A stretch of 64,000 nucleotides of DNA from Candidatus Omnitrophota bacterium (GTDB lineage Bacteria > Omnitrophota > Gorgyraeia > Zapsychrales > Fredricksoniimonadaceae). The stretch is taken from assembly GCA_021731625.1 (NCBI GenBank), contig JAKFXC010000060.1, forward strand, positions 794-64,793. Direction: 5' to 3'. Shown here in pieces: positions 1 to 55,217 of the stretch (position 1 is its first letter; every line of letters begins with the position of its first letter). The position numbers and the translations under genes are program-made. Under the pieces are notes generated by a model, which saw nothing but the letters and a program-made list of their open reading frames with translations, did no database searches and was not told where the DNA came from.

Positions 1-1746
1 CGGGCCGCGGCATTCGCCGATGATGATCCGGTCGGGGCGCATGCGCAGGGTGTTGACAAACAAATCGCGGATGGTGATCTTGCCCCGGCCTTCGATGTTG
101 GCCGGCCTGGCCTCGAGGCGGGCCCAGTGGACCTTGTTCAAACGCAATTCCGCCGCGTCTTCGATGGTGATGATGCGCTCATTGTCAGGGATGAAATGGG
201 ACACGATGTTAAGCAACGTGGTCTTGCCGGCGCCGGTCCCTCCGGAAACAATCACGTTTTTGCGGCTGAGGACGCAGGCGTTGATAAAATCCGCCATCGC
301 CTGGGACAGTGAATGGAACCGCAGCAACAAATCGTCGATGGTGTATTTTTCCTGCGAAAATTTACGGATGGTGATCATGGGCCCATTGAGTGACAGCGGG
401 GGGATGATGGCATTGATGCGGCTTCCGTCGGGCAAACGGGCGTCCACCATCGGCGACGATTCATCGACCCGGCGGCCCAGCGGGGCCAGGATGCGGTCGA
501 TGCAAGCCCGCACCTGTTCATTGGAAATAAAATGTTTGTTGGTCAAGACGATCTTGCCGCGTTTCTCAACGAAGATCTCGTCCTTGTTGTTGACCATGAT
601 GTCATTGATCTCGGCGTCCGCCAGAAAATCTTCCAGCGGCCCCAGCCCTAAGGCCTCATTGACCACCTCGCGCACCAGGCGCGAACGCTCCTCATGCGAG
701 GAAATAAACCCGCCCGACGCCTCGGCCATGAGGTCGGAGACCACTTTTTCAGCCGCCTTGCGGATGTTGCCGCTCTGGGCCGGGTCGGTCAAGGCCTCCG
801 GCGAGAGTTTCTGCAAATTCATGCGCTCGACCAGGCGCTGGTGAATCGCCCGCTTGAGTTTGATCACCTCGTCTTCTTCTTTGGTGTACATCCCCTTGAC
901 CGGGCCGCCGGCGTTAGGCAAGATGCCGAATTTTTCCCAAAACTCATTGGTCTTTTTCATGCCCGCGTCAGACGTGCGCACATTCAACACCTCGGCGGAC
1001 TGCACATAAATGTCATCCAATTGCAACTTGTCGGCGATCTCAAAAAACGTCTCCGAGACCTTGGCCTTGGGGCTGTCGATGACGCAGGGCACCCCCCGAT
1101 TTAAGGCGACGCCGACGGTCTTTCCGTCGGAGGGAATGAGCACCAAAATGTCGCAGGTCAATGCCGACTTGACTTCCTGCCAAGCCACCCCCCCGCGGCT
1201 CTCGGCCCGGTTTAAAATGAGCTTGATCATCTTGAGGGGATAGTGCAGGTTTTGAATGATCTCGAGGGTGTTTTTGGCCTGGTATACGGCCAGGATATCG
1301 GGAGTGGCAATGAGCAGGATCAGGTTGGACGAATCAAAAACGCTGATCAGCGTCTCCGTAAACACACTGCCGGCGTCGACAATGATAAAATCATAACTGG
1401 GCTGGGCCCGCTTGAAAAACAGCCGGATGTTATCGACGGTGATATGCCCGCTCTGACGGCTGTGATTGATGCCCGGCAGAAAATCCAGGCCGCTGACATG
1501 CGAGGTGACAAAACGCCTTAAGGCGTCCGGTTTGTCGTCCTTTTCAAGGTCCGCCAAAAGATCTACGAGGGAAAAAGCAGTGGAAAGATTGAGCATCCGC
1601 GCCATGTCGCGTCCGGCCTGCAGATCCAGGTCGAGCAGCAACACGCGCTTGCCTTTGATGGCCAAGGCGGTGGCGATATTGACGCTGCTAAAAGTCTTTC
1701 CTACCCCGCCTTTATTGGAGAAAACCGTGATGACTTTACAGGACAT
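1..1746 (-). CDS. Partial (C-terminus beyond window start) fusion protein: N-terminal ParA/MinD-like ATPase domain (TadZ/CpaE-like) fused to VirB11/CpaF/TadA secretion ATPase
   Basis: Minus-strand ORF from ATG at 1746-1744 (GGAG RBS 9 nt upstream) with no stop down to position 1, so it is absent from the ORF track. Translation starts MSCKVITVFSNKGGVGKTFSSVNIATALAIKGKRVLLLDLDLQ (deviant Walker A KGGxGKT of the ParA/MinD family). After about 330 aa it continues into the CpaF-type core DIMVNNKDEIFVEKRGK...VIVSGGTGAGKTTLLN...IITIEDAAEL...IIIGECRGP. Confidence 0.75.
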   Translation of the reverse strand, partial: MSCKVITVFSNKGGVGKTFSSVNIATALAIKGKRVLLLDLDLQAGRDMARMLNLSTAFSLVDLLADLEKDDKPDALRRFVTSHVSGLDFLPGINHSRQSGHITVDNIRLFFKRAQPSYDFIIVDAGSVFTETLISVFDSSNLILLIATPDILAVYQAKNTLEIIQNLHYPLKMIKLILNRAESRGGVAWQEVKSALTCDILVLIPSDGKTVGVALNRGVPCVIDSPKAKVSETFFEIADKLQLDDIYVQSAEVLNVRTSDAGMKKTNEFWEKFGILPNAGGPVKGMYTKEEDEVIKLKRAIHQRLVERMNLQKLSPEALTDPAQSGNIRKAAEKVVSDLMAEASGGFISSHEERSRLVREVVNEALGLGPLEDFLADAEINDIMVNNKDEIFVEKRGKIVLTNKHFISNEQVRACIDRILAPLGRRVDESSPMVDARLPDGSRINAIIPPLSLNGPMITIRKFSQEKYTIDDLLLRFHSLSQAMADFINACVLSRKNVIVSGGTGAGKTTLLNIVSHFIPDNERIITIEDAAELRLNKVHWARLEARPANIEGRGKITIRDLFVNTLRMRPDRIIIGECRGP

Positions 1747-1844: not shown

Positions 1845-3797
1845 TTAATACGCGGTGACGACCGCCTGGGTCTTGGCTTTAGCGTCGGCCTTGCTGTAGA
1901 CAATAGGGATGGTGATGTTCAAATAATCCCCTTTCATGTCCTTAGGAAAGGCGGCATATGGAGCCACGATTTTAGCGGTGTTTAGAGCATCTTTGTCAAA
2001 AATATTGTGCCCTGAAGACTGCACCACTGCTGCTTCCGCCAAAGATCCATCTTTTAAAATGTGGAGCTTGAGCTTGACAGTGCCGTGCAAATTCTTTTTG
2101 AGGGCCTCATAGGGATAGGTGATGGCCTTGGAAATCTTCACCTGAATAGAGCGCACATACGGAGAGATCTTGCCCTCAACCATGGTCGCTTGCGTCGCTA
2201 TTTCCCGAGATGCCGCCTTGTTCCATTTCTCCGATTTTGACCCTCGGTCCTTGGAAGAGCCTTTAGCGTCATCCTTGGCATCTTTCTTAGCATCTTTCTT
2301 AGCATCTTTCCAAGAATCTTTGCCAGATGCTTTGCCGGACGATTTCTTCCCATTCTTGACGCCTTCCTTAGCGGCATCCTTGCCGCTCTTATCGCTCTTA
2401 TCCTTATCCTTAAGGGAAGACGTGTACTTCTTCTGCAGCGGCTTAGGTGGAGGAGGCGGAGGATTTTTGGGTCTGTCCGTCGGCAATGGCTCATATTCCA
2501 TGCCGTATTTGTCTTCCAATTCTCTCATGTTCCTAGTTAAATCGTCACCTGGCATCTTGGCCTGATCTCTGGCATATTGTTTGGTCCGAACGATGGTCGG
2601 GGTCATGCTAATGACCACTTCTTTGGCCTCATCCGGAACAATCTTGCTGGTGTTTCTAAAAAACATGCCCACAATCGGTATTTTTCCCAAGAACGGCACC
2701 CGACGGGTTTGCTCGGCCTCGGCATAGCGGATCAAGCCCGCCATGATGACCGTCTGCTGGTCTTCCATCACCAGTTCCGTTTGCGCCGTGCGGGTCTTAT
2801 ACGCAATGTCGCTGGTGCGGGCGGCGGTGACCGGAAAGGTGGTGTCCACGTCGCTAATCTGCACATTCATCAGCACATTGATCTTTTCATCTTTGATCGT
2901 CGGGGTTACCGTCAAGGTGACGCCGTATTGTTTAAATGTCACATTGGTCTGCGCCGTCAAGCTGCTGGCATTAAAAGTGGTGGATTCGACCGGCACCTCG
3001 CCGCCGACATTCACGGTCGCTTGCTTGCCGCAGGCAACCACCAACCGGGGACGTGACAACGTGCGGGCCTTGCCGTCTTTGATGAGCAAGTTGACCGCCG
3101 TAATAATGGCATTCCTGCGGTTAAATTGCCCCAACTTAAACCAATCTCTGGCCCCGTCTAAATTCGAAGTCAGCGATTCCGTATAGATGAGCTTTAAAGG
3201 AAGACTGTTTTCTCCGCCGTTCCATTCAATGCCTAAATTTTTGTCCAGGGTGGTGCCGAGTTCCGTCACCTGCATGTCGATCTGGATCATGTCTTCGCAA
3301 TCTTTTTCGCGGGTGACATTGACGATCTGCTCGGAAAAGGGGTCCAGCAGCCGTTCCAGCCGGGGTCTTTGCTCTTTGTACACTTCTCCGGAAACGATGA
3401 CTTTGCCTTCCGCCGGGCTGGCGTCCAAATTCAAACCGTTAAGGTCGGCCTCCTCCAATAAACGCTGCAGCCGTTTCTTTAAACCATTTAAATCAACGCT
3501 GGAAACATTCAATGCCACTGTGTGCTTACCTTCGGAATCCCAATAAAACAACACGGTTTGCCCGGCCCGTTTGGCGACCACTGTGACTTTGTCGGCCGTG
3601 GCATCGGAAATATCCGCGATATCAGGGTTGGTGACGGACACCCGCGAAAGGGTCTTGGCTGGAAACGTCTGCACGTCCCCTAAAATCATGTTGGCCTCAG
3701 AGGTCGAGGTCTTTACCTCCTGGGCAATGCCGATACCGACGGGATTGATCGATCCGGTCACAAATACCAGCGTTATTAGGATTCTGAATATATTCAT
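1845..3797 (-). CDS. cpaC: Tad/Flp pilus secretin (CpaC/RcpA family) with Pro/Lys-rich linker and C-terminal TonB_C-like domain
   Basis: Signal peptide MNIFRILITLVFVTGS. Secretin core (GGEVPV...VMEDQQTVIMAGLIRYAEAEQTRRVPFLGKIPIVGMFF...VISMTPTIV). Then PPPPPPKP plus a KDAKKDAKKDAKDD low-complexity linker and a C-terminal domain ITYPYEALKKNLHGTVKLKLHILKDGSLAEAAVVQSSGHNIFDKDALNTAKIVAPYAAFP typical of TonB C-terminal domains. Confidence 0.8.
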   Translation of the reverse strand: MNIFRILITLVFVTGSINPVGIGIAQEVKTSTSEANMILGDVQTFPAKTLSRVSVTNPDIADISDATADKVTVVAKRAGQTVLFYWDSEGKHTVALNVSSVDLNGLKKRLQRLLEEADLNGLNLDASPAEGKVIVSGEVYKEQRPRLERLLDPFSEQIVNVTREKDCEDMIQIDMQVTELGTTLDKNLGIEWNGGENSLPLKLIYTESLTSNLDGARDWFKLGQFNRRNAIITAVNLLIKDGKARTLSRPRLVVACGKQATVNVGGEVPVESTTFNASSLTAQTNVTFKQYGVTLTVTPTIKDEKINVLMNVQISDVDTTFPVTAARTSDIAYKTRTAQTELVMEDQQTVIMAGLIRYAEAEQTRRVPFLGKIPIVGMFFRNTSKIVPDEAKEVVISMTPTIVRTKQYARDQAKMPGDDLTRNMRELEDKYGMEYEPLPTDRPKNPPPPPPKPLQKKYTSSLKDKDKSDKSGKDAAKEGVKNGKKSSGKASGKDSWKDAKKDAKKDAKDDAKGSSKDRGSKSEKWNKAASREIATQATMVEGKISPYVRSIQVKISKAITYPYEALKKNLHGTVKLKLHILKDGSLAEAAVVQSSGHNIFDKDALNTAKIVAPYAAFPKDMKGDYLNITIPIVYSKADAKAKTQAVVTAY

Positions 3798-3800
3798 GGC

Positions 3801-4634
3801 TTAAAGCTCCTTGCCGCCCCGGAAGATCTGGATGTCCGGCCGTTCCGGTTCTTCAGTGGTTGATTGTTGAATGCCTTTCAGTGAATCCGGCAGGTCAATG
3901 TCTGCCCCTTGATTTTGCAAAACATAGTCGGCCAGTGTTTTCCAGGTGGAGGCTTTGACCATTTGGCGTTCGCTTTCCTGAGGGGAACGCAGGGCCAGCT
4001 CCATTTTGCCGTTTTTGTCGGCAAAAGACAACAAACCGGCTTCTTCCGGGTCGACCGCGACCGTGATCCTTAAATCAGGCGCTTTTTGCTGCTCGTCGTA
4101 ATAAATCCCGGTCTCTTCTAAATTGGTATTGACGGCCAAAACTTCGAGGCCTTGAAAAATCATGGCGGTGACGGTATTTTTCTTATCGCCAATGCCCGGC
4201 ACACTTAAACGGGCAATCACGTCGACGGAATCGCCGGGGTTAAGCAGCCCGCCCACCGCGCCCAAAGATTCGACTTTGATGGTCACGGCCCTTTTTCCCG
4301 CCGGAGTCTTTACAGCTAGAGATGGTTTGGGTTTTTTAATGGTTTGGGGATTTTTCTGTATGCTGAGCTTGAGGTCGGCCATTTGTTTCTGCATGGCTTG
4401 GTCTTGTTCGGCCCGCTGCCTGGCAATTTCCGCCTGCAGCGCGGCTTTGTCTGCCGCGGCCTTTTGCTCCATGGCCTGGACAATTTGTTTGGTCTTAGCG
4501 TCGCTTTCTTCCTGGATCTGGGCCTCTTTCTGCGTAATGGTATCAGTCACATATTTCCCGATAAACGCCGCTGCGGCCAGCCCAGCCACCACGGCGATCA
4601 CGAGCAACCCTAACTGTTTTTTGTCCATAAACAA
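3801..4634 (-). CDS. cpaB: Flp pilus assembly protein CpaB/RcpC (SAF domain)
   Basis: N-terminal TM helix, coiled-coil region, C-terminal block KTPAGKRAVTIKVESLGAVGGLLNPGDSVDVIA characteristic of CpaB. Lies immediately upstream of the secretin on the same strand. Confidence 0.75.
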   Translation of the reverse strand: MFMDKKQLGLLVIAVVAGLAAAAFIGKYVTDTITQKEAQIQEESDAKTKQIVQAMEQKAAADKAALQAEIARQRAEQDQAMQKQMADLKLSIQKNPQTIKKPKPSLAVKTPAGKRAVTIKVESLGAVGGLLNPGDSVDVIARLSVPGIGDKKNTVTAMIFQGLEVLAVNTNLEETGIYYDEQQKAPDLRITVAVDPEEAGLLSFADKNGKMELALRSPQESERQMVKASTWKTLADYVLQNQGADIDLPDSLKGIQQSTTEEPERPDIQIFRGGKEL

Positions 4635-4653: not shown

Positions 4654-5607
4654 TTACTTGACGGCGCCGTCTCCCAGAAGGTTCTTGTTGATTTGCACTT
4701 TTGTTTTTGACGAAAGCTGCTCGATGTGGGCCAAAATGGCTTCCTGCTGTTTGCGTAAGGTCAGGCCCGCGATCAAATCGTCTTTGATGTCTTTGAATGC
4801 CTTGGCCGCGCCGCCTCTTTTGTCGTCGACGTGCACGATGTAATATCCTTGCGGGCCCTTAAACACCGGGCTGGTGCCTCCGGCGTCCAAAGAAGAGATA
4901 GCCGATTGCATGGCGGCGAAAGGGGCCTTGCCGTTATCGAAAGGTTTCAGGGCCCCGCCGGCTGCCGCGGATTTTCCCTTGGATTGGGCCTTGGCAATGT
5001 CGGCGAAACTCCCGCCCTGCAGGACCTGCACTAAAATGTTTTTGGCCGCAGTTTCGTCTTCCACCACAATTTCGCTGACTTTCCATTGAATGGGGTCAAC
5101 AAACATCTGTTTGTTTTTGTCAAAATAGACTTGGGCCTCTTTTTCCGTGGCCGCCACGTTTTTGGTCAAGCGGTTCGCCAATTCCTGCACCAAGAGGGTG
5201 CGGCGAAAATCCTCCACGGCCTCGGCGATTTCCTTTTGGGCGCCGATGCCTGCCTCTTCCGCATCCTTGACCAATAGCTGTTGGCGCACCAATTCATTTA
5301 AGACCGCTTCCTTGTTGCTGGCTTTGCTTTCGTCAAAATTGGGCAGGCCTTCTTTAAGCAGTTTCAGGCGTTGATTAAATTGGTCGGTGGTCAAGGTCCA
5401 ACTGCCTACCTGGGCCAAAACATCGCCGGCGGGAGCCGACGCCTTGGCAGAGGACGGCCGGGTCGCGGGCTCCGCGGTTCCTGTGGACGTCTTTTTGGAA
5501 TCTTTGTTTGAGTTTAGAAAAGAATTGATAAAATCGCAGCCGGAGATTGCTGAAACAACCATCACCACCGCCAATACAGCGACCCACTTTTTTTCAAAAT
5601 ATTGCAT
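4654..5607 (-). CDS. Parvulin/PpiC-type peptidyl-prolyl isomerase lipoprotein (SurA/PrsA-like)
   Basis: Lipobox AISGC. SurA-N-like helical region followed by a PPIase block (FADIAKAQSKG...GGALKPFDNGKAPFAAMQSAI...GYYIVHV). Confidence 0.65.
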   Translation of the reverse strand: MQYFEKKWVAVLAVVMVVSAISGCDFINSFLNSNKDSKKTSTGTAEPATRPSSAKASAPAGDVLAQVGSWTLTTDQFNQRLKLLKEGLPNFDESKASNKEAVLNELVRQQLLVKDAEEAGIGAQKEIAEAVEDFRRTLLVQELANRLTKNVAATEKEAQVYFDKNKQMFVDPIQWKVSEIVVEDETAAKNILVQVLQGGSFADIAKAQSKGKSAAAGGALKPFDNGKAPFAAMQSAISSLDAGGTSPVFKGPQGYYIVHVDDKRGGAAKAFKDIKDDLIAGLTLRKQQEAILAHIEQLSSKTKVQINKNLLGDGAVK

Positions 5608-5685: not shown

Positions 5686-6669
5686 TTAATGCACCAACTC
5701 TTCCACGGATTGTTTTTCCGACAATAATTCCTGTAAAGTGGTTTGAATTTTGGCTTTCGCAAAATCATTATGGGTTAAATCTTTGACGATTTCCCAAGAC
5801 TGGCCGTTGGAGCGCAAGGGAAAGCCGAACATCAGGCCCTGCGGCACCCCGTAACTGCCATCTGAAGATACGGCCGCGGAGAAGAATTCTCCGGACGGGG
5901 TGGGGGTGATAATGGCCCGCACGGTGCAGATGACCGCATTGGCTGCGGAGGCCGCGGACGACAGCCCGCGGGCTTTAATGATGGCCGCGCCCCGTTTTTG
6001 CACGGTCTCGATAAAGGCGCCCTGTAACCAGGCCAGGTCGGTAATGACCGTCGCGGCTGGCTTGCCGCTGATCGTGGCATTATAAAAATCAGGGTACTGG
6101 GTGGCGGAATGATTGCCCCAAATCCCTACTCTTTTAACGTCCAACACCGGCGCCTGGGCCTTAATGGCCAGTTGGGCGGCGGCCCGGTTCTGGTCCAACA
6201 TGGTCATGGCAAAGAAATTTGCCGCGGGAATACCGCTGCACACACTCTTAGCAATCCAAGCGTTTGTATTGCAAGGGTTTCCGACAACAAGCACCTTGCA
6301 GGTGGGTTTGGCATGGCTAGATAGGGCCTTGCCCTGTTCGATGAATACGCCGCCATTAATTTTAAGTAAATCGCCCCTCTCCATCCCTTCTTTGCGGGGA
6401 ACGCTGCCGACCAGCAAGGCCCAGTCAATGTCTTTGAACGCGACCTTGACGTCGCTGGAGATGGTAATAGATTTAAGTAAGGGGAAGGCGCAGTCTTCCA
6501 GCTCCATGACCACCCCACCAAGCGCCGGCAGGGCTTTTTCCAGTTCCAACAAATTAAGATCGATGGCTGTGTCTTTGCCGAATACCTCTCCTGCGGCAAT
6601 GCGAAACAACAAAGCATACCCGATTTGACCGGCCGCGCCGGTGACCGCCACTCTGACTCTATTTCCCAT
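5686..6669 (-). CDS. mdh: Malate dehydrogenase (NAD-dependent, LDH/MDH superfamily)
   Basis: [13 protein letters not shown] Rossmann motif and [15 protein letters not shown]. The ORF track start (6729) is probably too far upstream. Internal ATG at 6669 has a GGGGG RBS and gives [15 protein letters not shown]. Confidence 0.85.
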
Positions 6670-7447
6670 GCAGAACCCCCGGTAGTTTTTTCCTGGCGGC
6701 GTACACTTCACCCATATCAAGGTCGCCAAAAATGACTTCTTCTTTATTGTCGCTGCCGCGGGCCAGGATTTCGCCCCAGGGCGATACGATCATGCTGTTG
6801 CCGAATGCTTCGATGCCTCGGGCCCCGACGCCCACCTGGTTGGGGGCCAACACATACGACAGATTTTCAATGGCGCGGGCCCGCACGAGCGGCTCCCAAT
6901 GGGCCTCGCCGGTGTGGCGGGTAAAACACGCCGGCACGGTGAGCACATTGGCGCCTTGGCGACCGTAGCGCCGGTACAAATCGGGAAACCGCAAATCATA
7001 ACAAACGCTCAGTCCGATCTTAAATTTCCCGACGCTGCCCATGGCCTGCCGTCGTCCGGCGGCGAAACTATCCGATTCACGGATTATCTTATCATCGATG
7101 CAGGCGTCGAATAAGTGAATTTTGCGATATTTTGCCTCGACGTTGCCGAGGGGATTGATAAGGACCGAGGTGTTGTAGAGGCGCTGGCCCTGGCGCTCAT
7201 AAATGGAGCCGGCCAGAATGCTGACCGCGGTGCGGCGGGCGAGGCCTTGAAGGGTGCGGATGCTTTCGCCGTTGACGCTCTCCGCGCTGGCTTTAATGTG
7301 GCGAGGGTCAATCCGGCAGTGAAAAATTTCCGGCAGCAGCACAAATCTGGCGCCGCTGCCCACCGCATCGTTTATCATCTGCGATGCCCGTCGGAGATTC
7401 TCTTTCTTGTCCGGCGAAGCATTGAATTGGACCAGGGCTATGCGCAT
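6659..7447 (-). CDS. Carbon-nitrogen hydrolase family protein (nitrilase/omega-amidase-like)
   Basis: MRIALVQFN...FVLLPE...KIHLFD...[15 protein letters not shown] catalytic E-K-C pattern of CN hydrolases. Confidence 0.8.
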
Positions 7448-7461
7448 AGAAAAAGCAGGAA

Positions 7462-7486
7462 AAATAGGGAAAAATAGGGGGCTGTC
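7462..7486 (-). terminator. Rho-independent terminator hairpin AAATAGGGGG-CTGT-CCCCTATTT downstream of the GST gene
   Basis: 9-bp stem plus T-run on the minus strand. One member of a recurring hairpin family (see findings). Confidence 0.5.
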
Positions 7487-7488
7487 CC

Positions 7489-8130
7489 CTATTTCTTGGC
7501 GACCAGCATCTCGCCGTATTCTTTGTACGACTTGGTATAGAACGGCTGTCTTTTTAAACGGGCTCGCCAGGCGCTTAAGTTTGGATATGCGGCTAAGCTG
7601 ACATTCGCCAGTTCCGCCGGTTCCAGGGTGGCGAACAACACCAAGTCCGCCAGAGTCATTTCGTCGCTGACCACATATTTATGGGCGCCCAATTGTTTCT
7701 CTAGCAACGGAAAATACTGGTCTAAAAATTTTTGCGCGTCTTCGAGGGCCTTTTCATTGACCGGCCGGTTCATCCGAGGAGCAAAGATACGGCTGAAGGC
7801 CACCGTTGAGAAGTGCACCCCGATATGAAAACCAACAAAATCAATCCATTGCTCCACCACAATGCGTTTCTTCATGTCCGCCGGGTAAATCGGCGATCTG
7901 TGTTTCTCCGCCAGGTATTTGCAGATGGCATTGCTCTCGAACAAATGAAACCCGTCATCATCAATGGCCGGAATTTTTCCGACGGGATTGATCTTTAAAA
8001 ACCATTCCTGTTTCTGTTCCCCTTCACGCAAATTGAGGGGCTGCCACTTGTAATCGATGCCTATGTAATTGGCGGTCAGCCTGACCTTGATGGCGGGACC
8101 GGATAAATCCGAACCGTAAATGGTTAACAT
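7489..8130 (-). CDS. Glutathione S-transferase
   Basis: N-terminal thioredoxin-like GST domain (INPVGKIPAIDDDGFHLFESNAICKYLAEKH) and C-terminal helical GST domain. Confidence 0.8.
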   Translation of the reverse strand: MLTIYGSDLSGPAIKVRLTANYIGIDYKWQPLNLREGEQKQEWFLKINPVGKIPAIDDDGFHLFESNAICKYLAEKHRSPIYPADMKKRIVVEQWIDFVGFHIGVHFSTVAFSRIFAPRMNRPVNEKALEDAQKFLDQYFPLLEKQLGAHKYVVSDEMTLADLVLFATLEPAELANVSLAAYPNLSAWRARLKRQPFYTKSYKEYGEMLVAKK

Positions 8131-8392
8131 GTGCTGTCCTTTCTGTAAACTGTCTTGTCATCTGCGGCGACCCCAACGGGATTGCGCTCCAGCTTAAAAA
8201 ATCTATAGTCGCGCATTCAAAGCTTCCTTATCATAAAAACATTTGAAACTTTGAATGGAACCCATGCATTGTCAACGGCCTACCCAATGCATCTCAGCAG
8301 ACAACGTCGTTAGCTTAATGTTTTTGTCATCTGGGTTTCGGGTTCAATCGTGAGATCTTCAATTTCAAAATAGGGTAAACCCCTTTTGAAAT

Positions 8393-8469
8393 TGGCGACC
8401 CCAACGGGATTTGAACCCGTGCTGCAAGCTTGAAAAGCTTGTGTCCTGACCAGACTAGACGATGGGGTC
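8393..8469 (-). tRNA. tRNA-Glu (anticodon UUC), CCA encoded
   Basis: Minus-strand cloverleaf: acceptor GACCCCA/TGGGGTC, anticodon stem CAAGC/GCTTG with loop TTTTCAA, T-arm ACGGGTTCAAATCCCGT, 3' GCCA. Confidence 0.85.
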
Positions 8470-8529
8470 GAAAATATGCGGCAAGAATCGGCCTATTATA
8501 AGCGGAGCCTTCCTTTCGTCAAGCCCATT

Positions 8530-10989
8530 CTACTCTGCGTCTTCCTTGCCCACCACGTGCGCGATGGAAGTGACGGCGTCGGACTTCCCCAGCGCAATCA
8601 ATCGCACGCCCACGGCGCTGCGGCCGGTCTCGCGGATCTCCGACGGAGAAGAACGGACCACCATGCCCTGCTTGGTCACCGCCATGATTTCATCGTCGTC
8701 ATTGGTGGTGAGCACTCCCACCACAGCCCCGTTTTTTTCGGTCAACTTCACATTGATGATGCCCTTGCCGCCGCGCGAGGTGGTGCGGTAGTCGGCAAAA
8801 TCGGAACGCTTGGCATATCCCAACTCGCAGACGGTAAGAAGCTTGGCGCCGGTCTTGTCCACGTCGGGGGCAAACACCAGCATGCCCACCACATAGTCCT
8901 TTTTCTCCAAATTTATCCCCCGCACGCCCTTGGCGCCGCGGCCCATGTTGCGCAGCTGCTTCTCCTGGAACCGCAGGGCAATGCCCATATGCGTGGCCAA
9001 GAGCACGTCTTCCTTGCCGTTGCTTAACGCCACGCCGATGAGCTCATCGTCTTTTTCTAAGCCGATGCCGACGATGCCGCCCTTGCGCGGGTTGCCGTAG
9101 GCCGACAGCGCGGTCTTTTTGACCAATCCCTGCTTGGTGGCAAAAACCAAGAATTGATCGTCGCGGAATTCTTTCACCGCCACAATGGCGCTGATTTTCT
9201 CGTCGGGTTTAAAAGACAGCAAGTTGATGATGGCTTTGCCCTTGGCGGTGCGTGAGGCGACGGGGATCTCGTAGACCTTCAACCAGCGCACGCTTCCCAG
9301 ATTTGAAAAAATAAGCAAATAGTCTTTCGAGGAGGCCACAAACATGCGTTCCACAAAATCATCTTCCGACGTGGTCATGGCGTTGACCCCCTTGCCCCCG
9401 CGTTTTTGAGAGCGGTATCCGTCCACCGACAAGCGCTTGATGTATCCCTTATTGCTGATGGTGATAGCCATTTCCTCGTCGGCGATCAAATCCTCGATGG
9501 CGATGTCTTCGGCCTTGCCGGCAATCTCGGTGCGGCGCTCGTCCGCGTATTTTTTGCGCAGGGCCGCCAACTCTTCTTTGATGATGGCATCCACCCGCTT
9601 ATCAGACGCCAATATGGCGCGGTAATTGTCAATGTCCTTAAGCAACTGCTGGTACTCGGCCTCAATTTTGTCCCTCTCCAGGGCTGCCAAACGCTGCAAC
9701 TGCATTTCCAAAATGGCCTGGGCCTGGACTTCCGAAAGGTCGAATTTACGGATCAGCGCTTCCTTGGCGTCCGCGGTGGTTTTGGAAGCCCGGATGGTCT
9801 TGATGATTTCATCCAGATGTTTAAAGGCGGTCTTCAGGCCCTCCAGAATGTGAGCGCGGCGCAATGCTTTGTCCAAATCAAACTGGGTCCGTCGGCGGAT
9901 GACCACGCGGCGATGGCCAATGTAATGGCCCATCAATTGCTTGATATTTAAAACTTTGGGGCTTTTGTTGACTAAGGCCAGATTGATGATCCCAAAGGTC
10001 ACTTCCATCTGGGTGTGCTTAAACAAATAATTCAGCACAATATTGGGATCCACTTCCCGGCGAAGTTCAATGACCACCCGGATGCCGTCTTTGTCGCTCT
10101 CGTCGCGGATGTCGGTGATGCCGTCGACCTGTTTGTTCTGCACCAGCTCAGCAATGTGAGCAATGAGATTAGCCTTATTGACTTGATATGGGAGTTCGTT
10201 GATGATGATGAATTCCCGGTTGCCCTTTTGCTGCTCAACGGAAGCCTTGGCGCGGATGATGACTTTGCCGCGGCCATTGTTGTACGCGTCCACGATCCCC
10301 TCACGGCCGCAGATGATGCCGCCGGTCGGAAAATCCGGGCCTTTGACAAACTTCATCAAATCCTTGATGGCGGCCTCGGGGTTGTCCAGCAAATGCACGA
10401 CGCCGTCAATGACTTCGCCCAGATTGTGCGGGGGCATGTTGGTGGCCATGCCGACGGCAATCCCCGAGGAACCGTTGACCAATAAATTGGGAATCATGCC
10501 GGGCAAAATGTCCGGCTCATCCAGCGAGCCGTCGAAATTGGGGGAAAAATCCACCGTCCCTTTGTCAATGTCGTTCATCATCTCTTCGGCCACCGAAGCC
10601 ATGCGTGCCTCGGTGTAACGCATGGCCGCTGCCGCATCGCCGTCAATGGAACCGAAATTCCCCTGCCCGTCGATCAAAGGATAGCGCAAAGAAAATTCCT
10701 GCACCATGCGCACCATGGTGTCATACACCGCGGTGTCGCCGTGGGGATGGTATTTGCCCAGCACCTCGCCCACGATGCGGGCGCTCTTTTTATAAGGCTT
10801 GTTGTGCTCGAGATTGAGTTCCTTCATCGCAAACAAAATGCGGCGGTGCACCGGTTTTAACCCGTCGCGCACATCGGGCAAAGCCCGGCCGACAATGACC
10901 GACATCGAATAGGACAGATAGGAATTCTTCATCTCCTCTTCGATGTACACCGGAACGATTTTCTCTTTTTTATTCAAATCACGCGACAT
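8530..10989 (-). CDS. gyrA: DNA gyrase subunit A
   Basis: 819 aa. N-terminal GyrA motifs ([25 protein letters not shown], active-site Tyr region [10 protein letters not shown]) and C-terminal beta-pinwheel repeats. Confidence 0.95.
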
Positions 10990-11007
10990 CGCTTACCTTT
11001 CTTTAAA

Positions 11008-11081
11008 AGGGGGACACATACCGTAACCTTAATTCTACGGTAGGTTCTAAGTGGGAATTAAGGTCACGGTATGTGTCCCCT
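11008..11081. repeat. 70-bp palindromic element, copy 1: 25-bp inverted arms GGGACACATACCGTAACCTTAATTC / GAATTAAGGTCACGGTATGTGTCCC around a 19-nt loop
   Basis: Seen directly in the gyrB-gyrA intergenic region. A near-identical copy lies at 32488-32555. Confidence 0.7.
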
Positions 11082-11088
11082 AAATGTC

Positions 11089-13536
<2,448 letters not shown>

Positions 13537-13557
13537 TTAAAAAATGCCGCTCAAGTA

Positions 13558-13830
13558 TTACACTTTCCCGACTTTAAACCGCAACGCTTTAATTTTCGGA
13601 TTTTTTTGGCTGAGTTCTGCCAAATAGTTTGCCTTCTGGGCATTCATGCGCACCAACCTCGCCGAGCAATCCACGTGCACGGTCAAACACCCGTCCTTAA
13701 ATTCCGCTGCCGCGGCGCCTTCGGTCTTGCCGTACAAACGTTCCCACATCTGCGCCAGACCTGTGGGGTTTAAATTCCCCTGGGCCAAAGGCGCAATCAC
13801 CCTTGGAATGATATCCCCAATGGCATCCAT
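13558..13830 (-). CDS. DUF721 protein (DciA-like, putative replicative helicase operator)
   Basis: Internal start MDAIGDIIPRV...WERLYG...GCLTVHVDCSARLVRMNAQKANYLAELSQKNPKIKALRFKVG fits the DUF721 pattern. Its ATG overlaps the dnaN stop by 1 nt (TGATG). Sits in the canonical recF/DUF721 slot between dnaN and gyrB. Confidence 0.6.
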   Translation of the reverse strand: MDAIGDIIPRVIAPLAQGNLNPTGLAQMWERLYGKTEGAAAAEFKDGCLTVHVDCSARLVRMNAQKANYLAELSQKNPKIKALRFKVGKV

Positions 13831-14918
13831 CACAGCCTCATCGGCAACGCCAAATACAAATATTCCCGCAAACGCAGCACGCAAGGCTTGTCCGGGCCCA
13901 GAAATTCCAGCTCCAGGCGCTCGTCAGAAATGTTCTTGAGCACGTCGATAAAAAACTGCGGGTTAAACCCCACCATCATTTCCTGCTGGCCGTACTCAAT
14001 GTCAATTTCTTCCCTGGACTCCCCCACGTCCGGCGTAGTCTTGGAAATCACCAGCTTGTCCTTAAACACCTCGAATTTGATAGCCTGGAAATCGGGGGTG
14101 GACAACAAATTTGCCCGGCGGATGGCAGCCAGCAAATCCGCCGTCTTCACTTTGACTTTATGTGGAATCTCTTTGGGAATGACCTGTTTGTAATTAGGAA
14201 ACTCCCCTTCAATGATGCGGGTGGCAATCAAAATCCCGTCGATGTTAAATAAGACCTGGTTGGGCCCCCCGATGATCACGCAATCTCCCGACTCTTTTAA
14301 ATTGCGGCTTATTTCCGCCACCGCCTTAATGGGAATAATAATAGAAAAATCTTTAGCGCTGGCTTGCAATAATTTTTTCTCAATCTTAGCCAATCGCCGG
14401 CCGTCGGTCGCCACCATCCGCGCCGTGTCTCCGGAAATTTCCAATAACAACCCGTTTAACACATACCGTGATTCCTCATACGAAACCGCGAAAGACGTTA
14501 ACCGGAGCATTTCTTTTAAATCGGTTTGTTTAATCAACACCGCGTCTTTGTCTTTAAATTCTGGAAACTTAGGAAATTCCTCTTTTGGAAGGCCGTTAAG
14601 CTTAAACCGGCAGTTGGTGCCCTCTATTTCAATTTGATTGTTCTTGCGGGCGTAGATGATCACTTCCCCGGCTGGAAGCTCTCTAATAATATCGCTAAAC
14701 TTCTTAGCTGGAATAGTTATCGCCCCTTGTTCAAAAGTATGCACAGGCAATTCACAGGATATACCAATGTCTAAATCCGTTGTGTTCATTTTCAAACCAT
14801 CGCTTTTGGCCTCCACTAACATGTTTGACAGTATAGGAAGTGTGGCCCTGGAAGAGACAATATTACCTACGACCTGGATCCCGCTTAAAAGTTCTTCTTT
14901 CCCAATTTTGATTTTCAT
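13830..14918 (-). CDS. dnaN: DNA polymerase III beta sliding clamp
   Basis: Three-domain beta-clamp pattern starting MMKIKIGKEELLSGIQVV. ATG at 14918 with an AGAAGGA RBS. The ORF-track start at 14921 is an upstream TTG. Confidence 0.9.
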   Translation of the reverse strand: MKIKIGKEELLSGIQVVGNIVSSRATLPILSNMLVEAKSDGLKMNTTDLDIGISCELPVHTFEQGAITIPAKKFSDIIRELPAGEVIIYARKNNQIEIEGTNCRFKLNGLPKEEFPKFPEFKDKDAVLIKQTDLKEMLRLTSFAVSYEESRYVLNGLLLEISGDTARMVATDGRRLAKIEKKLLQASAKDFSIIIPIKAVAEISRNLKESGDCVIIGGPNQVLFNIDGILIATRIIEGEFPNYKQVIPKEIPHKVKVKTADLLAAIRRANLLSTPDFQAIKFEVFKDKLVISKTTPDVGESREEIDIEYGQQEMMVGFNPQFFIDVLKNISDERLELEFLGPDKPCVLRLREYLYLALPMRL

Positions 14919-14921
14919 CAA

Positions 14922-15094
14922 GGCATCCTTCTTATTGCTGTTGGAAATTTTCGCTCCATATAGCCGTCATATTAGTAAGGGTTGTGGATAAATTGAATGA
15001 AACACAAAACCCATTATTTATCAGTATCTTACAATTATTCACAGCTGTGGATAACACTTGAATAAACGGGTAAGTTATACACAATATTCCAACC
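14922..15094. promoter_or_regulatory. Candidate oriC: AT-rich dnaA-dnaN intergenic region with DnaA boxes
   Basis: TGTGGATAA at 14983-14991 (perfect). Dyad TTATTCACA-GC-TGTGGATAA at 15035-15054. TTATACACA at 15075-15083. Surrounded by AT-rich sequence. Confidence 0.6.
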
Positions 15095-16429
15095 CTATTC
15101 TAATAGAACAAAATTCAAATGCTCAACGATTTTTTGTATTTCTTTGTTGCTGTTCAATTCGTTTTCAATTTTGCGGCAGGCATGCAAGATGGTGGTGTGG
15201 TCCTTGCCGCCAAAAGCCGCGCCGATTTCAGGCAATGAATGGGATGTCAGCTTGCGGGCCAGGTACATGGCTGCTTGTCTGGGCAAAATGATATTTTTGT
15301 GCCGTTTCTTGGTTTTTAAGTCTGCCACCGCGATTTTAAAATAGGCGGCCACCTCTTTTTGCACCATTTCCACACTAATGGTTTTGACGGTTTCCCTCAC
15401 CATGTCTTTGAGCACATTCTTGGCCACCTGCAAGTTGACGGGTTTGCCTTCCAGCAAAGCATAGGCCACCACGCGGATGAGTGCCCCCTCGAGCTCGCGG
15501 ATGTTGGACTTGATTTCAGCGGCGATGAAAGTCACCACATCGTCGGCAACCACCACGGACTCCAGCTCCAGCTTTTTCCTTAAGATGGCCACGCGGGTTT
15601 CATAGTCCGGCGGCTGAATGTCGGTAATCAAGCCCCAGGCAAAGCGCGACACCAGGCGCTCCTCCAGGTTAGCGATTTCTTTCGGCGGCCGGTCGGAACA
15701 GATGATGATTTGCTTGCAGTGGTCGTGCAGGCTGTTAAAGGTGTGAAAAAATTCTTCCTGGGTGGATTCTTTGCCGGCGATGAAATGGATGTCGTCGATG
15801 AGCAGCACATCGATGGTGCGGTATTTTTGCCGAAACGCCTCGGTGGCGCGGTGCCGAATGGCATTGATGAGCTCGTTGGTGAATTTTTCCGATGATAAAT
15901 AACACACCTTGAGCGACGGATGCCGGCTGCTGATTTCGTGGGTAATGGCCTGCATGAGGTGAGTCTTGCCCAACCCCACCGGACCATAAATAAAGAAAGG
16001 ATTATAGGTTTTGGCCGGAAAATCCGCCACGGCGTGGGCGGCCGCAAAGGCAAAACGGTTTGACGGGCCCACCACAAAATTTTCAAAGACGAAGCGGCTG
16101 TTGAGGCCTAAATTTTTATTGCCGCTGTCAAAATGCTGCTCCAGCCGGTTTAATTTTTCCTGCACCGGTTTATTGAGCAGCCCGGTGTTGACTTCAAACT
16201 GCAGGGCCAGGTCCTCCCCGGACTGGGTTCTTAAACAGCGCGCGATCATAGTGGCGTAGTGCTCCACGATCCAGTTTTTAAAAAATTCATCCGGCGCTTG
16301 CACGGTGATGGTCTTGCCTTCCCCGTGGTCGACCGCGTTTAAGTTGGTAAACCAGGTGTCATAAGACGTGTCTCCGATGGCGGCGCGGATGGGTTGTTGG
16401 ACTTTTTGCCAGACTTCGAGGAGATTCAT
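15095..16429 (-). CDS. dnaA: Chromosomal replication initiator DnaA
   Basis: AAA+ domain (FIYGPVGLGKTHLMQAI, Walker B LLIDDIHF) and C-terminal DNA-binding domain (ILPRQAAMYLARKLTSHSLPEIGAAFGGKDHTTILHA). True start taken as MNLLEVWQKV at 16429. The ORF-track N-terminal extension (to 16783) reads through a tandem repeat. Confidence 0.9.
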   Translation of the reverse strand: MNLLEVWQKVQQPIRAAIGDTSYDTWFTNLNAVDHGEGKTITVQAPDEFFKNWIVEHYATMIARCLRTQSGEDLALQFEVNTGLLNKPVQEKLNRLEQHFDSGNKNLGLNSRFVFENFVVGPSNRFAFAAAHAVADFPAKTYNPFFIYGPVGLGKTHLMQAITHEISSRHPSLKVCYLSSEKFTNELINAIRHRATEAFRQKYRTIDVLLIDDIHFIAGKESTQEEFFHTFNSLHDHCKQIIICSDRPPKEIANLEERLVSRFAWGLITDIQPPDYETRVAILRKKLELESVVVADDVVTFIAAEIKSNIRELEGALIRVVAYALLEGKPVNLQVAKNVLKDMVRETVKTISVEMVQKEVAAYFKIAVADLKTKKRHKNIILPRQAAMYLARKLTSHSLPEIGAAFGGKDHTTILHACRKIENELNSNKEIQKIVEHLNFVLLE

Positions 16430-16452
16430 ACTTAAGGTAAGGCGTTCACAAG

Positions 16453-16472
16453 TTATCCACAGCTGTGGACAT
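16453..16472. promoter_or_regulatory. DnaA-box dyad TTATCCACA-GC-TGTGGACAT upstream of dnaA
   Basis: Perfect TTATCCACA at 16453-16461. Inverted partner at 16464-16472 with 2 mismatches to TGTGGATAA. Same architecture as the dyad at 15035-15054. Confidence 0.6.
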
Positions 16473-16523
16473 CGTCGGAGCAGCCGGGACTCCCTCTCGG
16501 GGCCATCTTCTCTCCAACGTTTC

Positions 16524-16765
16524 ATGTCCCTCGACCCTTCGGGCCAATCCTGCTTCGCAGTATTGGGGATTACCCCACTCATAAAAAACGCTCGGGGGTT
16601 ACCTCTCGGGACGAACGGCTTGTCCCTCGACCCTTCGGGCCAATCCTGCTTCGCAGTATTGGGGATTACCCCACTCATAAAAAACGCTCGGGGGTTACCT
16701 CTCGGGACGAACGGCTTGTCCCTCGACCCTTCGGGCCAATCCTGCTTCGCAGTATTGGGGATTAT
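16524..16765. repeat. Tandem repeat, 96-bp unit x about 2.5, between the DnaA boxes and rpmH
   Basis: Unit GTCCCTCGACCCTTCGGGCCAATCCTGCTTCGCAGTATTGGGGATTACCCCACTCATAAAAAACGCTCGGGGGTTACCTCTCGGGACGAACGGCTT repeated at 16524, 16620 and partially at 16716. Both strands give spurious repeat ORFs because the unit is 32 codons long. Confidence 0.85.
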
Positions 16766-16861
16766 AACAAACAAAATTGACAATGCAACGGATTTTTCGT
16801 ATCGCTCGATATTCCCGACGGCTTCAGCTGTGATTTTGCAGTCTGGACAATTGTAAAAAAC

Positions 16862-54071: not shown

Positions 54072-54770
54072 ATGCGCATAATGAGCCCTTTTGTTATGGT
54101 GTGCCTTTGGTCATCCGAGGCCTTCGCCGCGACCGTCGACCCCAGTGGCACGGAGATGACGCTTTGGCAGACCCTGGTGGCCGGCGGCATGGTCATGATT
54201 GTTATCGGGATCTTGTCGATCATTGCCGGGGCCATCATCATTTATGATTTTTGGAACTTGAAAGTAGAAAAGCTGACGCCCAGGCGATTCTTTCAGGAGG
54301 TAACCCGCAAACTGGAAGAGAAAAATTTGAAAGATGCCCGGGTCATGTGCCTCAAGGAAAACAACAACATCATTGCCCGCATCGTTTTGGCCGGTTTGGA
54401 TAAACTCAAAAAAGGGCAAACTGATGTGAAAGAGTCCGTCGAGCACCAGGCCCGCATCGAGATCGGCAACCTTTGGCAGAATTTGAGTTACCTCTCCGAC
54501 ATTGTCGCGGTGGCCCCGCTTTTGGGGTTGCTGGGAACAGTGCTGGGGATGATCCAGGCCTTCCATGCGGTGCCGCTGCAGTCGGCTGCTGTCAAGACCA
54601 CCTTGCTCGCCGCCGGTATCTCCAAAGCCATGGTCGCCACCGCGTCCAGTTTGATTGTCGCCATTCCAGTGCTTATGGCGTATTCCTATTTTCGCGGCCG
54701 GGTGCAGCAATTGACCACGGTGATTGAAATGTACACCACGGAAACCATCCGGATGTTGGAAAAATTATAA
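54072..54770 (+). CDS. exbB: MotA/TolQ/ExbB-family proton channel
   Basis: Three TM helices and the C-terminal conserved block LLAAGISKAMVATASSLIVAIPVLMAYSYF. Confidence 0.85.
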   Translation: MRIMSPFVMVCLWSSEAFAATVDPSGTEMTLWQTLVAGGMVMIVIGILSIIAGAIIIYDFWNLKVEKLTPRRFFQEVTRKLEEKNLKDARVMCLKENNNIIARIVLAGLDKLKKGQTDVKESVEHQARIEIGNLWQNLSYLSDIVAVAPLLGLLGTVLGMIQAFHAVPLQSAAVKTTLLAAGISKAMVATASSLIVAIPVLMAYSYFRGRVQQLTTVIEMYTTETIRMLEKL

Positions 54771-54776
54771 AGATCG

Positions 54777-55217
54777 ATGGGGGGCCGCATGTTTAAATTC
54801 GACGTTTCGGAGTATCAAAAAATAAGACCGCAGATCCAGCTGGCGCCGATGGTGGACATCGCTTTTTGGGCGCTGATGTTTTTTATGATCATTGCGGTGT
54901 TTAACCAAATGGAATCGCAAGTCAACATCACCGTGCCCAAATCAAACGCCGCCACGGAATCCTTGCCCAGCGCCGGGAAATTGATCATCAATGTCACCAG
55001 GGAAGGGCGGTTTATTTTAAACCAGCAAGAGCTCGATGGCAGCGCTCTGGAGGCCATGCTCGCCAAGGTGTACAAATTGTTCCCCAACCAGCAGGTCATT
55101 ATCCGGGCCGACGCCATGGCGTACCATAAATACATCATTCAGGCCTTGGATGCCTGCATGCGGGCGAATATCACCGATGTGGCATTTTCGACCGTTAAAG
55201 GAGATGACCGAGAATGA
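54777..55217 (+). CDS. exbD: ExbD/TolR-family protein
   Basis: Single TM (MVDIAFWALMFFMIIAVF) and periplasmic ExbD domain. Immediately follows exbB. Confidence 0.85.
   Translation: MGGRMFKFDVSEYQKIRPQIQLAPMVDIAFWALMFFMIIAVFNQMESQVNITVPKSNAATESLPSAGKLIINVTREGRFILNQQELDGSALEAMLAKVYKLFPNQQVIIRADAMAYHKYIIQALDACMRANITDVAFSTVKGDDRE

Follow-up and report, generated by a model that had tools for sequence, protein, structure and literature searches.

The window analyzed here is a stretch of 64,000 nucleotides (nt) from a Candidatus Omnitrophota bacterium (assembly GCA_021731625.1, contig JAKFXC010000060.1, positions 794 to 64,793 of the forward strand). Near its left end, on the minus strand, lies a gene whose product is a Tad-type secretin (CpaC/RcpA) that carries a TonB C-terminal domain (CTD; family TonB_C) at its own C-terminus. 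The gene and the parts of its product are as follows, where aa stands for amino acids, ORF for open reading frame and pLDDT for the predicted local distance difference test score of the AlphaFold models.

1845..3797 (-): whole gene, Tad-type secretin with C-terminal TonB_C module, 650 aa plus stop, ATG start; from the ORF, domain matches and conserved family
3723..3797 (-): putative signal peptide, about residues 1-25, MNIFRILITLVFVTGSINPVGIGIA/QE; hydrophobic N-terminus read from the sequence
3504..3692 (-): T2SS-T3SS_pil_N (pil_N) domain, residues 36-98; Pfam PF13629, 38.6 bits (cutoff 23), pLDDT >90
3303..3491 (-): second periplasmic alpha/beta domain (BON-like/YscD-like), residues 103-165; PF21934, 27.8 bits, pLDDT >90
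2586..3086 (-): secretin core, residues 238-404; PF00263, 128.5 bits (cutoff 27.5)
2505..2546 (-): post-secretin helix, S-domain-like, residues 418-431; helix in the AlphaFold model, weakly conserved (22%)
2178..2477 (-): disordered linker, about residues 441-540; NPPPPPPKP, then Lys/Asp/Ser-rich low-complexity sequence, 15% mean identity
2263..2321 (-): 12-nt tandem repeat, 4.9 copies with 82% matches, encoding KDAK repeats within the linker; Tandem Repeats Finder
1893..2168 (-): TonB C-terminal domain, residues 544-635; PF03544, TIGR01352, PDB profile matches, model and fold search
1848..1892 (-): C-terminal tail, residues 636-650, KADAKAKTQAVVTAY; strand-like, clade-specific motif at the C-terminus

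The reading frame is unbroken across its 650 codons. The putative signal peptide was called by reading the sequence rather than with a dedicated signal-peptide predictor; it forms a helix (residues 3-16) in the AlphaFold model, and the homologues begin alike. It is followed by a pil_N domain, the N-domain typical of CpaC/RcpA, and by the BON-like domain, whose Pfam match spans residues 107-157. When compared with the PDB, the secretin core matched the pil_N-bearing secretin 8jvb (4e-25) and RcpA (8odn, 4e-20). AlphaFold models were built for the full-length protein, with a 73-sequence family alignment, and for the C-terminal module alone, both as monomers. In the full-length model the N-terminal domains and the secretin sheets are confident and residues 541-640 reach a pLDDT of 91-97, while linker residues 453-540 stay below 50 and the tail is of low confidence. 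A fold search with this model returned secretins first, the pil_N-bearing 14-mer 8jvb/9wfd at the top and the RcpA-TadD complex 8odn also listed. No Pfam match to Secretin_N was found in the protein, and the NCBIfam equivalog models of GspD, PilQ and SctC all scored far under their cutoffs. By its core, its N-domain and its gene context, the protein is a Tad-type secretin.

The C-terminal module is a genuine TonB-family C-terminal domain. It was matched by Pfam TonB_C (PF03544; residues 559-634, 65 bits against a cutoff of 24.6) and TonB_2 (residues 545-618) and by NCBIfam tonB_Cterm (TIGR01352; 52.8 bits, cutoff 27.1). A family profile of the module matched the Helicobacter pylori TonB CTD (6sly/5lw8) in the PDB end-to-end, with E values of about 3e-11. 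Modelled alone, the module folds as alpha0-alpha1-beta1-beta2-alpha2-beta3 with a pLDDT >90 over the domain, and it carries the motifs YP, GTVKL (beta1), DG, SSG and PIVY (beta3 edge). All of the top 25 PDB fold matches of this model are TonB CTDs or TolA domain III (TolAIII). The best is the H. pylori TonB-CTD 5lw8 (TM 0.78, rmsd 2.1 A, 89 columns), which shares with the module the family, the fold, an extra N-terminal helix and the YP, SSG and PI.Y motifs; TolAIII structures stand third (1lr0) and seventh (6s3w). No LysM, OmpA-like, AMIN or SPOR fold was found among the module's PDB fold matches. Although TolAIII has the same fold, the sequence models prefer TonB_C (65 bits) to TolA (tolA_full, 17.8 bits, under its cutoff of 59.45), and the window protein has neither a helical domain II nor a membrane anchor. 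In TonB and TolA, TonB boxes and the TolB N-terminus pair with beta3 (PMC7391070), and by homology beta3 of the module would be its pairing strand.

A preliminary description, made from the letters of the window, had read this gene as a Tad secretin fused through a low-complexity linker to TonB_C, and Pfam, NCBIfam, the PDB profile search and the fold search agree on that reading. The strings that it quoted (PPPPPPKP, the KDAKKDAKKDAK run and ITYPYEALKKNLHGTVKLKLHILKDGSL...) are all present in the protein. It had proposed profile searches and a structure prediction: the former place PF00263 (128.5 bits) and PF03544 (65 bits) both over cutoff, and the latter gives the C-terminus a TonB CTD/TolAIII fold with pLDDT >90.

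The same C-terminal extension recurs widely, as a survey of homologues, likewise proposed, made clear. In a search of 5.8 billion proteins we obtained 72 clusters at 90% identity (358-692 bits), all with PF13629, PF00263 and PF03544, below which came a sharp drop to CpaC proteins of the ordinary kind, lacking TonB_C, at 157 bits or less. Run exhaustively with HMMER against 1.84 billion representatives, a second search gave 64 clusters at 50% identity with pil_N, secretin and TonB_C domains and no closely related module in a non-secretin protein. A word-indexed search with the TonB_C profile for standalone relatives returned mostly short-contig pieces of these fusion genes. A species scan with one genome per GTDB species yielded at least 80 loci, so that counts out of 80 given here and below are counts among the matches listed. 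The architecture is found in 80 of the 80 loci, with matches extending to residues 635-650, and in every one of them the secretin is the sole TonB_C-bearing ORF within 10 kb. The labels of these loci, which are unverified, read Omnitrophota/Omnitrophica in 52 cases, "uncultured Planctomycetales" in 24 (third-party annotation, TPA, assemblies) and other names in 4, and the synteny is common to all. In genomes of the Omnitrophota type, this secretin normally occurs in the fused form, which is strongly conserved.

Mean pairwise identity within the family is 51% for pil_N, 56% for the secretin core and 52% for TonB_C, compared to 22% for the post-secretin helix, 15% for the linker and 24% for the tail. 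To judge by these values, the TonB_C module appears to be constrained as strongly as the secretin pore and to be under purifying selection. Y547, G572, G584, S595, G596, D601, P613 and P631 are invariant in the family, A604 is also among the invariant or near-invariant positions of the module, and conservation reaches 90% or more at I632, V633 and Y634. The spacer between secretin and module varies from 20 to 189 aa (5th percentile 29, median 58; 123 complete proteins), and its Pro content is unconserved (3-27%), NPPPPPPKP being found in the window protein. The Pro/Lys richness of the linker, noted in the preliminary description, is not a family trait but peculiar to this genome, linker length and composition being unconstrained and the Lys run representing a local expansion of the 12-nt repeat. 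With that repeat at 2263-2321 the window linker is among the longest and most Lys-rich of the family, which suggests that it was recently expanded by slippage in this genome. The net charge of the module ranges from -11 to +9 across the family.

Roughly 10-20% of the family has two tandem modules (6-7 of the 80 species, 12 of the 64 clusters at 50% identity), and divergent two-module members of up to 1,091 aa retain the same cassette of neighboring genes. Proteins of this type such as P0190 and P0232 (L083:2584-5721) measure 1,045-1,091 aa and combine two TonB_C modules with a long Lys-rich C-terminal extension. The contig of one divergent two-module member also encodes an ordinary PilQ/GspD-type secretin without TonB_C. 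One cluster member of this type is labelled "Candidatus Hydrothermarchaeota archaeon" at NCBI; the label is most likely a binning error, because the contig holds bacterial secretin and pilus genes.

Three other genes of the cassette lie in the window.

3801..4634 (-): CpaB/RcpC alignment-complex protein, 3 nt upstream of the secretin; PF16976 79 bits, TIGR03177 94 bits
4654..5607 (-): SurA/PrsA-like peptidyl-prolyl isomerase (PPIase) lipoprotein, first cassette gene; Rotamase_2 66 bits, SurA_N, lipobox ISGC with Asp at +2
1..1746 (-): CpaE/TadZ-like ParA ATPase fused to CpaF/TadA ATPase; from the translation, ATG at 1746, leaving the window at its left edge

The order PPIase lipoprotein, CpaB, secretin-TonB_C and CpaE::CpaF, following GyrA ... 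Mdh, is constant across the 80 loci; the PPIase lipoprotein gene is found in at least 69 of them and CpaE::CpaF in all. In essentially all related loci the latter is one protein of about 720 aa (the window copy is cut by the edge), as in the full-length orthologue L001:11704-13875, where a ParA-like region spans residues 4-240 and T2SSE residues 367-642. A divergent locus (L084) has two CpaE::CpaF genes in tandem. In Caulobacter and Pseudomonas, CpaE/TadZ and CpaF/TadA are separate proteins. Apart from this fusion, which sets the locus off from the RcpA/CpaC systems, the window secretin resembles the known members of its class (Pseudomonas aeruginosa RcpA-TadD, 8odn; Caulobacter CpaC; 8jvb/9wfd) both in joining pil_N to a secretin core and in being encoded beside CpaB/RcpC, a CpaE-like ATPase and CpaF, with Flp/TadE-type pilins downstream (here in relatives).

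The cassette follows an origin-proximal block (5686-16783, minus strand) that runs from dnaA (15095-16783) through dnaN, gyrB, gyrA, a GST-like gene, a CN-hydrolase/amidase gene and mdh to PPIase-cpaB-secretin. The 80 related species loci keep this gene order; the cassette lies about 11 kb from dnaA. In V. archaeovorus, an expressed Tad locus at 12-30 kb of the genome was described by Seymour et al., who discuss RcpA and make no mention of TonB or of a fused secretin (PMC10066038). Downstream of the cassette, relatives encode DUF192, a conserved protein of about 480 aa, at least eight small pilins (Flp-type G/xxxEY), a TadG-like protein and a very large ORF. In L003:15856-20085 and L085:20093-21752, for example, at least eight small Flp/TadE-type pilin genes (G/xxxEY) and a 463-aa TadG-like gene precede an ORF of more than 1,149 aa. 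The conserved soluble protein (470-490 aa; L001:14248-15657, L003:14267-15748) always stands after DUF192 and could be assigned to no family, its one match being a weak helix-turn-helix-like one at the N-terminus. Tad cassettes and "TonB-domain" genes have been reported to flank giant Omnitrophota genes (2026 preprint), and these "TonB" genes are probably the secretins described here.

Two of the neighboring proteins were considered as partners of the module. The C-terminus of CpaB (3801-3842) ends, after a variable acidic spacer, in a near-invariant KPxIQIFRGGKEL peptide (core IQIFRGGKEL; 77 loci), which corresponds to the RcpC/CpaB C-terminal beta element. In other Tad systems this element binds the secretin N-domain or CpaI (for CpaI, PMC13170226). 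As a partner specific to TonB_C the peptide is not favored; it lies within the general CpaB model, with TIGR03177 aligning to its end. The PPIase (4654-5607), encoded directly upstream of cpaB, has a signal peptide with a lipobox (...AISGC, Asp at +2) and a disordered tether of 40-50 aa, in which no conserved free strand was found apart from the start of SurA_N. The lipoprotein may be a dedicated secretin chaperone.

Additional modules at the periphery of the barrel are known from other secretins. C-terminal S-domains lie on the periplasmic side, outside the barrel, and bind pilotins, RcpA included (PMC10499894). The statement in the preliminary description that secretins carry N-terminal periplasmic domains only is therefore incorrect, although the architecture itself, with a folded TonB_C at the C-terminus, is indeed unusual for secretins. 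In RcpA the C-terminal extension, which is functionally important, ends in about 17 unstructured residues, the last four of which bind a separate protein, TadD, that rings the barrel (PMC10499894); its counterpart here is the 20-189-aa spacer followed by one or two folded TonB_C modules. In situ, Caulobacter CpaC shows a spoke-like belt that has been assigned to the separate OmpA-like lipoprotein CpaD, plus CpaI at the level of the peptidoglycan (PMC13170226). By contrast, neither the gene calls of four related loci nor the 10 kb that follow the secretin contained a tetratricopeptide (TadD-like) or OmpA-like (CpaD-like) gene. The AMIN domains of PilQ bind peptidoglycan and position the secretin (PMC10653833), and the TsaP ring (6ve2) and the S-domain-pilotin pairs of GspD and InvG likewise position or stabilize secretins from the barrel periphery or the periplasm. 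These accessories differ from the module in their folds (AMIN, LysM, TPR and small lipoproteins), in the N-terminal position of AMIN and in that TsaP and the pilotins are separate polypeptides. With TonB the secretin shares a flexible spacer ahead of the CTD (partly Pro/Lys-rich in this genome). It lacks the N-terminal transmembrane anchor of TonB and its ExbB/ExbD partners, and its module would hang from an outer-membrane pore, i.e., from the opposite membrane in an "inverted" topology, in at least 13 copies per complex.

With middling confidence, we propose that the module serves as a belt or anchor, joined covalently to the secretin at its periphery near the outer membrane, which would bind by beta-strand augmentation and act in docking rather than in energy transduction. 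The secretin C-terminus would emerge on the periplasmic side, outside the barrel and just under the outer membrane, so that a ring of 13-14 subunits would crown the barrel with 13-14 (or 26-28) TonB_C modules. Strand augmentation is the mode of binding of both the TonB CTD and TolAIII (PMC7391070), and the modules would in the same manner seize a short extended peptide at the nearly invariant beta3 edge (PIVY). Given that the spacers are only 20-29 aa long in some species, the partner would be no more than a few nanometres away from the barrel. A bridge from the module to the inner membrane was also considered and is unlikely in view of the same spacers. The modules would thereby form, or dock onto, an outer membrane-proximal belt that fixes or stabilizes the secretin in the envelope and/or aids its assembly, a place that separate proteins (TadD, CpaD, TsaP/AMIN) fill in other machines. 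The ligand may be a strand of an outer-membrane or peptidoglycan-associated protein, a neighboring subunit or the protein's own tail. The duplication of the module seen in some sequences fits docking of an avidity type, and the spread of its net charge argues for specific peptide recognition over generic binding of an anionic polymer.

Several points weigh against this proposal. The multimeric state and the outer-membrane location of the window secretin are assumed from homology (for the 13-14-mer, to RcpA; PMC10499894). Spacers of up to 189 aa, and the roughly 100 disordered residues of the window protein, permit a much longer reach, and action close to the outer membrane is required only if all members share one function. 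In the AlphaFold monomers the module is docked neither on the secretin nor on its own tail (pLDDT <50). Finally, the absence of TadD/CpaD-like genes covers about 10 kb on each side only, and the tadB/tadC platform genes were also not found within 10 kb; thus, parts of the Tad system are encoded elsewhere.

One alternative places the ligand in the protein itself: the tail would mimic a TonB box and pair with beta3 of the neighboring subunit to close a ring, or would cover that edge in cis until displaced. In the window, in 20 of the 80 species and in about half of the 72 clusters, the protein ends in the conserved motif [TA][EQ][KT]V[IV]A[SA]Y (...TQAVVTAY in the window, EKVIASY in relatives), which we take to resemble Escherichia coli TonB boxes such as BtuB DTLVVTA. 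Tails of other kinds are the amphipathic LDxFLKNVA type (12 of the 80 species) and the EKAILG type (5). The LDxFLKNVA tail recalls the displaceable alpha4 helix of TolAIII, a C-terminal element that covers the site at which partners are captured by strand augmentation (PMC7391070), and the extreme C-terminus of RcpA is likewise a docking peptide (PMC10499894). However, the tail is absent (8 residues or fewer after beta3) in 33 of the 80 species and in all two-module proteins; therefore, pairing with the tail is not the general function of the module. Moreover, a seven-residue beta-prone motif may look like a TonB box by chance, and AlphaFold leaves the tail undocked, docking in cis being seen in neither model. 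Self-association or autoinhibition through the tail is accordingly a rather unlikely account of the module.

Direct anchoring to peptidoglycan, in which the TonB_C modules would bind murein as AMIN does in PilQ or the OmpA-like domain in CpaD, is improbable to a similar degree. Other secretins do recruit peptidoglycan-binding modules (PMC10653833, PMC13170226). The modules here are multivalent and at times duplicated. The C-terminus of E. coli TonB is reported to bind murein with some affinity, a report that was not found in the literature searched. Against such an anchor stand the fold search, which gave only TonB CTDs and TolAIII, the unconserved net charge of the module (-11 to +9) and the best-established activity of the fold, i.e., the capture of peptides by strand augmentation.

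It is unlikely, and slightly more so than either of the preceding possibilities, that the module is an assembly or targeting device alone, a built-in substitute for a pilotin that would transiently dock the unfolded secretin on an outer-membrane assembly factor or on the PPIase lipoprotein as a chaperone and have no role in the mature machine. Consistent with such a device are the position of the module, which is that of the S-domain and pilotin site in other secretins, the lack of a TadD-like gene nearby and the SurA/PrsA-like lipoprotein at the head of the cassette. The tether of this lipoprotein, however, offers no conserved free strand motif except the start of SurA_N, and its Cys-Asp lipobox would keep it in the inner membrane by the rules of E. 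coli, which may not hold in this phylum.

The same low probability attaches to what may be called an "inverted TonB," in which the crown of outer membrane-tethered TonB_C modules would take hold of a strand of a partner that moves or bears force and so couple secretin gating, or the anchoring of a retracting predatory pilus, to strand augmentation of the Ton/Tol type. Its partner may be an adaptor driven by TolQR/ExbBD, a TonB-box-bearing outer-membrane protein or the secretin's own TonB-box-like tails acting as a closable ring. Mechanical or energetic coupling to Ton/Tol-type systems finds little support in our analysis.

A role in a true TonB system is very unlikely. Here TonB_C would engage the TonB boxes of TonB-dependent transporters at the pilus base, or would be the missing partner of an exbB-exbD or tolQ-tolR pair, such as that formed by two ORFs at the other end of the window.

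54072-54770 (+): MotA/ExbB-family ORF; TolQ 97 bits versus ExbB 57 bits, both below the equivalog cutoffs
54777-55217 (+): ExbD-family ORF; TolR 55 bits versus ExbD 36 bits, both below the equivalog cutoffs

In favor of such a role, the module is a true TonB_C domain whose beta3 resembles that of TonB, the pair has no adjacent TonB or TolA, and no second TonB_C was found in the six frames of the 64-kb window. In the preliminary description the pair had been called exbB-exbD and noted to lack a TonB; no TonB does lie beside it, but its members score higher as TolQ and TolR, and the gene that follows encodes a 784-aa protein with six CpoB/YbgF-type repeats (167 bits, cutoff 90), succeeded by a 557-aa VWA-domain protein. 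The region 54072-59225 (+) is an atypical Tol-like cluster without adjacent TolA, TolB or Pal. Among the window ORFs checked we found no TonB, TolA, TolB or Pal and, among the large ORFs, no TonB-dependent receptor; in the gene orders of the 80 loci, no exbBD lies within 10 kb. Canonical TonB-dependent receptor/sus-type import clusters were also remarked to be absent from the genomes examined, in a comment on gene flanks (2026 preprint). A functional link between secretin and pair, which had been implied earlier, was rejected as unsupported: about 50 kb separate the two, the pair is TolQ/TolR-like and stands beside a CpoB-like protein, and the anchor of TonB is missing from the secretin. ExbBD acts through the N-terminal anchor of TonB, whereas in the window secretin a cleavable-type signal peptide runs straight into the pil_N and secretin domains. 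Without an N-terminal membrane anchor there would be no coupling to ExbBD/TolQR, no transmission of the proton-motive force and no energy transduction, and the sequence indicates that the window secretin is neither a TonB protein nor an energy transducer.

There is next to no chance that the fusion is an artefact, whether of chimeric assembly, which the preliminary description had asked to be checked, or of reading through from one gene into the next: TonB_C is a separate small ORF in two records (P0126 and P0133), but both are frameshifts inside the linker (one on a nanopore contig with several broken genes, the other with its parts in different frames), and the recurrence of the single-ORF form in at least 80 species, in many independent assemblies, excludes a chimera.

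No description of a secretin-TonB_C fusion was found in the literature searched, nor, beyond the papers cited here, anything of relevance on TonB in Omnitrophota. The public names of these genes are "TonB family protein" (PGAP) or "TonB C-terminal domain" (also in the 2026 preprint), and the name "TonB family protein" is misleading in that it hides the identity of a pilus secretin. Plentiful as it is in databases under misleading names, the fusion, going by the literature that can be searched, has not been described. The accessories of the Tad secretin differ in each studied system (TadD in Pseudomonas, CpaD/CpaI in Caulobacter), and a fused TonB_C would be a third, genetically simple solution, in which the phylum hard-wired a TonB-type peptide-capture domain where those accessories bind; its 90 residues are a handle for finding the partner. 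Omnitrophota are largely ultra-small and probably predatory or parasitic, and the Tad system has been singled out as their likely attachment device (PMC10066038), so that a Tad feature specific to the phylum would bear on how these cells hold prey. An "inverted TonB," if true, would connect type IV filament machines functionally with systems of the Ton/Tol type, a connection that would be new. To specialists of secretins and type IV pili, a phylum-wide TonB_C-bearing secretin would be unexpected and open to experiment.

In addition to the secretin family, TonB_C was met outside a TonB context in secreted proteins with several modules. P0167, P0179, P0188, P0196, P0200 and others consist of a signal peptide and 3-6 weakly scoring tandem TonB_C modules, with no membrane anchor. 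Those compared more closely with the secretins (P0167, P0179 and P0196) have no secretin domain, and their modules are distant, at 20-60 bits each, compared to 80-150 bits in the secretin family. To judge by these sequences, TonB_C evidently finds wide use as a repeat module in the periplasm or in secreted proteins.

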